A stretch of DNA of 32,927 bases from Candidatus Poseidoniales archaeon (GTDB lineage Archaea > Thermoplasmatota > Poseidoniia > MGIII > CG-Epi1). The stretch lies in NCBI GenBank assembly GCA_045567855.1, contig JBJLCC010000022.1, positions 1 through 32,927 of the forward strand, in the 5' to 3' direction. The notes beneath the pieces were generated by a model, which had not been told where the DNA came from, searched no databases, and worked only from the letters and a program-made list of their open reading frames with translations. Made by a program: the position numbers and the translations under genes. Shown here piece by piece: positions 121 to 186 of the stretch; the stretch's first letter is position 1; each line of letters begins with the position of its first letter.

Positions 121-186
121 GTAGTTCATGCACACGGCGATAATCTGTCTAGACTTTTTGAATTCTCAAAAAAGATTCAAGTAATT
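121..186 (+). pseudogene. Internal fragment of an mptE homolog, diverged from the in-window copy
   Basis: Reads [22 protein letters not shown] versus [22 protein letters not shown] at 20372-20437 (minus). Hand alignment gives 51/66 nt and 18/22 aa identical. Confidence 0.9.

Follow-up and report, generated by a model that had tools for sequence, protein, structure and literature searches.

A scrap of a divergent mptE allele in a five-piece patchwork at the tip of a Marine Group III (CG-Epi1) metagenome contig, very probably a chimera joined in vitro

The window analysed here, a stretch of 32,927 nucleotides that makes up contig C22 of a metagenome bin from a Candidatus Poseidoniales archaeon, carries near its left end a 66-nt piece (121–186) that resembles, in inverted orientation, an internal part of the intact mptE gene of the same window. 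The initial annotation described this piece as a diverged second copy of an mptE segment that was not derived from the genome's own allele, which raises the question of what the piece is, from which organism it came and how it reached the end of the contig. The surrounding bin (G000) comprises 973 kb in 56 contigs and is 67.8% complete, and the placement of the window in the genus CG-Epi1 is given by an exact match that names the genome G003 "Marine Group III euryarchaeote CG-Epi1" (MIZA01000001.1). Positions 1–700 of the window were compared by blastn and tblastx with the whole bin and with 60 relatives. The features discussed below are collected in Table 1.

Table 1. Coordinates of the features in the window and at its left tip
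Feature	Position	Strand	Description
Piece 1	1–120	−	Interior of a giant surface-protein gene, with the open frame SDCPDEDDGRSVSFCFEKLLPGNYTLRLDTEGLLADGTI; cut by the contig start
Piece 2	121–186	+	Internal fragment of an mptE allele; 22 in-frame codons, approximately residues 112–133 of a 213-aa protein
Piece 3	187–300	−	About 1.5 units of a DUF285/BspA-like 25-aa repeat
Piece 4	301–391	+	Interior of a gene for a 767-aa multi-pass membrane protein
Piece 5	392–452	−	Interior of a gene for an acidic DxDxD (thrombospondin-type-3-like) repeat protein; reads SVYGTDPTTNDTDSDNFTDD
Apparent ORF, 85 aa	166–423	−	Spans three unrelated pieces
Apparent ORF, 72 aa	435–653	−	trkH codons 1–67 plus 5 junk codons
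trkH, first 67 codons	453–653	−	Cut at base 453 by the patchwork
trkA	660–2030	−	456 aa; Pfam TrkA_N and TrkA_C; anchor for finding same-strain contigs
ABC ATPase gene	19416–20132		3′ end lies in the divergent-allele island
Divergent-allele island	~20033–20763		mptE and the 3′ end of the ABC ATPase gene; corresponds to L062 230–960
The window's own mptE	20129–20770	−	213 aa, intact; MptE-like, PF01973 44.5 bits (cut-off 34.6)
Counterpart of piece 2	20372–20437	−	Within the window's own mptE

The two mptE segments form an inverted pair of 66 nt that is 77% complementary and constitutes the longest inverted repeat in the window. Read on the plus strand, the piece matches 20437–20372 on the minus strand at 51 of 66 nucleotides and 18 of 22 amino acids, and 9 codons differ synonymously, 4 non-synonymously; the match counts and the 9 synonymous codons reported in the initial annotation were all reproduced. 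When the 66-nt piece was searched by blastn against the entire bin, this was its sole match (77.27%, E = 1.7e-7), and the similarity far exceeds chance. A PF01973 scan of the bin identified the window's own gene as the only MptE-like gene above the threshold, so that the bin holds no second mptE; the claim that the piece is not the genome's own allele was borne out. The same scan gave a sub-threshold MptE-like hit at C38 21716–21889 (16.5 bits, E = 0.003), within a frame of 203 aa that contains one TAA stop; this hit does not match the 66-mer and is unrelated to the piece. An exact look-up of the window's own MptE protein in public assemblies returned no record.

MptE is the archaeal 6-hydroxymethyl-7,8-dihydropterin diphosphokinase (PF01973), and the 22 codons of the piece align to the region of the conserved VVHAHGDNL motif of its orthologs. 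Unlike an mptE gene, the piece covers 22 of 213 codons and has neither start nor stop, nor flanking mptE sequence, nor syntenic neighbours. Against the 171-position PF01973 domain, with its cut-off of 34.6 bits, it scored 27.6 bits over query residues 106–133, and it went unreported in the PF01973 scan of the bin. Its flanks are scraps of unrelated genes, whereas the orthologs have a surface-protein gene upstream and an ABC ATPase gene downstream. The piece is a 22-codon scrap of a gene for the MptE kinase, and not a gene, a pseudogene locus or a regulatory element.

Compared with mptE from the eight nearest species in the genus, the piece was identical at 46–53 of 66 nucleotides, those orthologs being identical to one another at 46–64 of 66. 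In these alignments it behaves as one further ortholog lineage would, in line with the ortholog-type divergence proposed at the outset. No donor of more than 83% identity was found among the 32 species of the genus. With a codon-degenerate pattern of a 15-aa peptide, a single contig was detected in JGI/ENA metagenomes, Tara CETI01093656.1 (L062); its mptE is intact, encodes 213 aa and has its neighbours ordered as in the window. The exact MptE protein of this contig was found on three more contigs (Tara CESQ01130767.1 and two ENA assemblies; the four donor-type contigs are designated L062, L069, L070 and L071). Contigs with donor-type mptE include ERZ27286480:k119_1595563 and ERR599081 k127_277397. 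The intact mptE in all four matches the piece at 63 of 66 nucleotides and 22 of 22 amino acids, with the three mismatches all synonymous and at third positions; this match also sets the edges of the piece at 120/121 on the left and 186/187 on the right. In L062, L069 and L070, the donor-type mptE occupies the orthologous, syntenic site, between the surface-protein gene and the ABC ATPase gene. The peptide pattern was absent from the GTDB species genomes and from viral contigs. The donor can therefore be recognised, on the evidence of these alignments, as the intact mptE of a nearby, non-identical population, as had been foreseen in the initial annotation.

The degree of relatedness between donor and window cannot be read from the piece itself, because mptE lies in an island of divergent alleles, so that 77% identity between the piece and the window's own allele does not imply a distant donor. 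Aligned with window positions 20992–15313, L062 is 91.9% identical overall and very unevenly so: the flanks are 90–99% identical, mostly 93–98% downstream of the island, whereas identity is 70–76% across mptE and the final ~100 nt of the ABC ATPase gene. By gene, window and L062 are 93.3% identical in the ABC ATPase gene (81–84% between the window and other species of the genus) and 96.0% in orf148 (70–79%), against 77.1% by blastn in mptE (73–80%); within the island, L062 is no nearer to the window than other species of the genus are. Aligned over their full length, the mptE alleles of window and L062 share 74.8% identity, and the mptE tree does not place them as sisters. These observations suggest that the island arose by allelic replacement through recombination within the CG-Epi1 genus, or else that it represents an old polymorphism. 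The sister population that carries the donor-type allele is ~94–95% identical to the window strain outside mptE, and the donor was probably a very close relative with a replaced or divergent mptE allele. Of the description of the donor as "related but distinct", the separate lineage was upheld, and the distinctness need not mean distance, the two being 93–96% identical outside mptE. The divergent mptE allele (~75–77% against flanks of 93–96%) is the sole real biology found at this locus and a modest side finding.

The mptE scrap is the second of five pieces, each 61–120 nt long, that together occupy exactly bases 1–452 at the terminus of the contig; from base 453 onward, the sequence is ordinary chromosome. 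All five pieces are gene interiors in mixed orientation, each with its own donor frame open and all mutually out of frame; open donor frames are what is expected of short coding fragments. Piece 1 had no match anywhere in the bin by blastn or tblastx, and its bases 12–120 are 74–79% identical to same-genus genomes, for example at 13755–13861 of contig C20 of G001, within an ORF that is open for more than 1658 aa. The host gene of piece 4 encodes what we take to be a putative oligopeptide-transporter-like protein.

Every piece compared differs from the copy in the bin: the mptE piece is 77% identical, piece 3 shows 80–85% identity to the repeats with which C20 ends (6769–7243), piece 4 is 96.6% identical to C38 16853–16940, and piece 5 is 91.9% identical in nucleotides, and 100% in amino acids, to C1 3935–3996. 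The species that holds the best match differs by piece: bases 300–391 are 100% identical to G003 and G001, bases 231–300 of piece 3 are 97% identical to contig C52 of G011 (96% to contig C13 of G025), and piece 5 is 95% identical to contig C57 of G007. The claim that the mosaic samples DNA from close relatives agrees with these comparisons, in which the pieces differ from the bin copies and are better matched in other species of the genus. The mixed donor identities and the match of 63 of 66 nucleotides to the Tara allele therefore indicate DNA from more than one cell. A self-chimera of one cell was at no time the right null, the setting being the chimeric tip of a contig in a composite metagenome bin and not the genome of a cell. 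Pieces 4 and 5 are 92–97% identical to their bin copies, which also agrees with a sister-population donor that is ~94–95% identical elsewhere.

In the bin, C20 6769–7243 is a DUF285/BspA-like array of a 75-nt repeat that runs off the contig end, and very long arrays of the DUF285/BspA-like repeat occur in relatives, for example on contig C28 of G009 and contig C34 of G022. Strict alternation of orientation along the patchwork was considered as a mechanistic clue and rejected, given that it holds relative to the coding strands only, has a chance of ~1/16 and is broken at the join between piece 5 and trkH.

The right edge of the patchwork falls within trkH, the gene next to trkA. The TrkA protein of the window is present in identical form on four public contigs, three of which reach the 452/453 junction: L063 (NCBI GCA_045567935.1; 99.987% identical to the window over 7578 nt compared), L064 (ENA ERZ23491108; 99.934% over 4545 nt) and L066 (ENA ERZ27286360; 99.965% over 2866 nt). 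In each of the three, homology to the window ends exactly at 453 and an intact trkH follows; the full TrkH is 522 aa in L063 and L064, and the copy in L066 is cut by the end of its contig. Within the bin, C41 is collinear with the window (C22 453–14490 with C41 1–14039, 92.8% identity by blastn), likewise loses homology at 453 and has a full 522-aa trkH after trkA. An exact look-up of the 85-aa and 72-aa chimeric ORFs found no record in other public assemblies, a look-up from which records of the own genome were possibly excluded. The patchwork is specific to the tip of C22. The other contig tips of the bin gave no comparable matches, and the patchwork thus looks like a one-off event.

Three joins were aligned to their best donors at single-base resolution, and overlap is 1 nt at 300/301, 0 at 391/392 and 1 at 452/453. 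Contig-end overlaps in the bin measure 119–120 nt, which indicates de Bruijn assembly at a k of ~119–120. A misjoin in the assembly graph needs k−1 shared bases and was ruled out by the 0–1 nt observed at these three joins; since a graph misjoin would require ~119–120 shared nucleotides and the joins are blunt, the joins were therefore already present in the reads. Remnants of adapters or linkers were not found in bases 1–520, which were searched with 14-mers of 13 common sequences at up to 2 mismatches, so that the sequence bears no direct mark of a library step; as direct ligation of fragment to fragment leaves none, their absence speaks for neither side. A 35-nt probe over the 186/187 join was absent from viral contigs.

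From what is directly observed, namely the anatomy of the pieces and their blunt joining, the allele of the donor and a trkH that is intact in assemblies of the same strain, we infer that positions 1–452 are, very probably, a chimeric appendage on the tip of a metagenome contig, lying outside the chromosome of the organism and joined in vitro. Fragments of ~60–120 bp from several co-occurring MGIII cells of the CG-Epi1 genus would have been joined end to end without homology, most likely when small sheared fragments were ligated to one another in library construction, before adapter ligation. A concatemer with a stretch of trkH at one end would then have been attached to C22 by the assembler, and the 66-nt mptE fragment would have been copied from the intact, very different mptE allele of a sister population. 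Chimeric contig ends are a known class, and the patchwork falls within it. With the insert-to-insert ligation chimeras of shotgun libraries and of draft and metagenome contig ends, it shares short unrelated pieces, blunt joins and a position at the extreme tip, as well as a join that is not reproduced in same-strain assemblies and that comes without repeats, target duplications or mobile-element genes; it differs in that its source is several related natural populations and not one isolate, and in that the library step is one that we infer. Nothing directly usable was found in the literature on ligation chimeras and CG-Epi1. A consideration against joining in the library is that a 452-nt chimera needs read depth to pass the k-mer filters of an assembler, and such depth would imply duplicates from PCR, amplification of the library or a real molecule shared by several cells.

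Two other explanations draw on read depth. Template switching during MDA or PCR of a low-input sample, in place of ligation, could have raised a single chimeric molecule to assembly depth, and MDA chimeras resemble the patchwork in being mosaics with frequent changes of orientation: here, most adjacent pieces are inverted with respect to one another when orientation is taken from the coding strand, and inversions are reportedly typical of MDA chimeras. The joins of MDA chimeras, however, normally show 2–21 nt of microhomology between nearby segments of one molecule, and MDA and PCR chimeras alike usually join nearby parts of one template through microhomologies of several bases. The patchwork has overlaps of 0–1 nt and draws on unlinked genes from different contigs and mixed lineages, and four successive switches, one every 60–120 nt, would have been required; template switching is accordingly judged improbable. 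A real molecule, by contrast, could have formed in vivo if a double-strand break in trkH in a subpopulation of MGIII had been healed by homology-independent end joining, with capture of five extracellular fragments from relatives as filler DNA. Blunt joins with overlaps of 0–1 nt are what end joining gives, free DNA in sea water could supply fragments from relatives, and the read support sufficed for assembly over 452 nt. Filler-DNA capture through NHEJ at double-strand breaks shares with the patchwork both the blunt joins and the short foreign fragments at a break within a gene, yet it is known mainly from eukaryotes, and here same-strain assemblies carry the intact gene and the molecule is known from the assembly alone. 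In addition, the site is a contig tip, where the sequence ends after 452 nt without a return to the chromosome; trkH is intact in three assemblies of at least 99.93% identity and in C41; and the chimeric ORFs occur in no independent assembly. We know of no precedent in an archaeon for five consecutive captured fragments. Capture in vivo is hence considered quite improbable; if it were true, the patchwork would document directly that an uncultured marine archaeon had captured extracellular DNA.

That the piece might come from an additional mptE gene or pseudogene, present in this genome as a paralog but missing from the bin, is highly improbable. With the bin 67.8% complete, a second copy could be unsampled; against this, all 39 family genomes that gave a match have exactly one mptE locus apiece (the 66-nt piece of the window aside), the donor-type allele is found at the orthologous syntenic position in four contigs, and the piece is a mere 66 nt flanked by scraps of unrelated genes. 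A self-derived duplicate or paralog was accordingly rejected, with a single above-threshold locus in the 68%-complete bin and a blastn match there of 77%. The designation "second copy" of an mptE segment has to be given up; what lies at 121–186 is almost certainly not a genomic copy but one scrap in a contig-tip chimera.

For annotation, ligation in the library as the very probable source has practical consequences. The first 452 bases of C22, together with the 85-aa and 72-aa ORFs, are unfit for annotation, trkH is not truly truncated and the organism is without a second mptE. Pieces that come from sister populations each resemble a "diverged copy" of a gene of the bin, and for this reason a library chimera in community DNA can mimic diverged paralogous fragments under purifying selection.

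The bin itself is composite: at least two lineages are co-binned, as seen from C22 and C41, which are ~93% identical, despite a contamination estimate of 0.5%. Elsewhere in the bin, C36 duplicates C41 27091–29763 at 81.8%. Several interior matches of 78–88 nt at 85–91% identity connect different contigs, for example C15 6930–7007 with C41 20169–20245, C20 1715–1793 with C45 11374–11452, and C37 91569–91656 with C45 14143–14230, and their length suggests tRNA genes.
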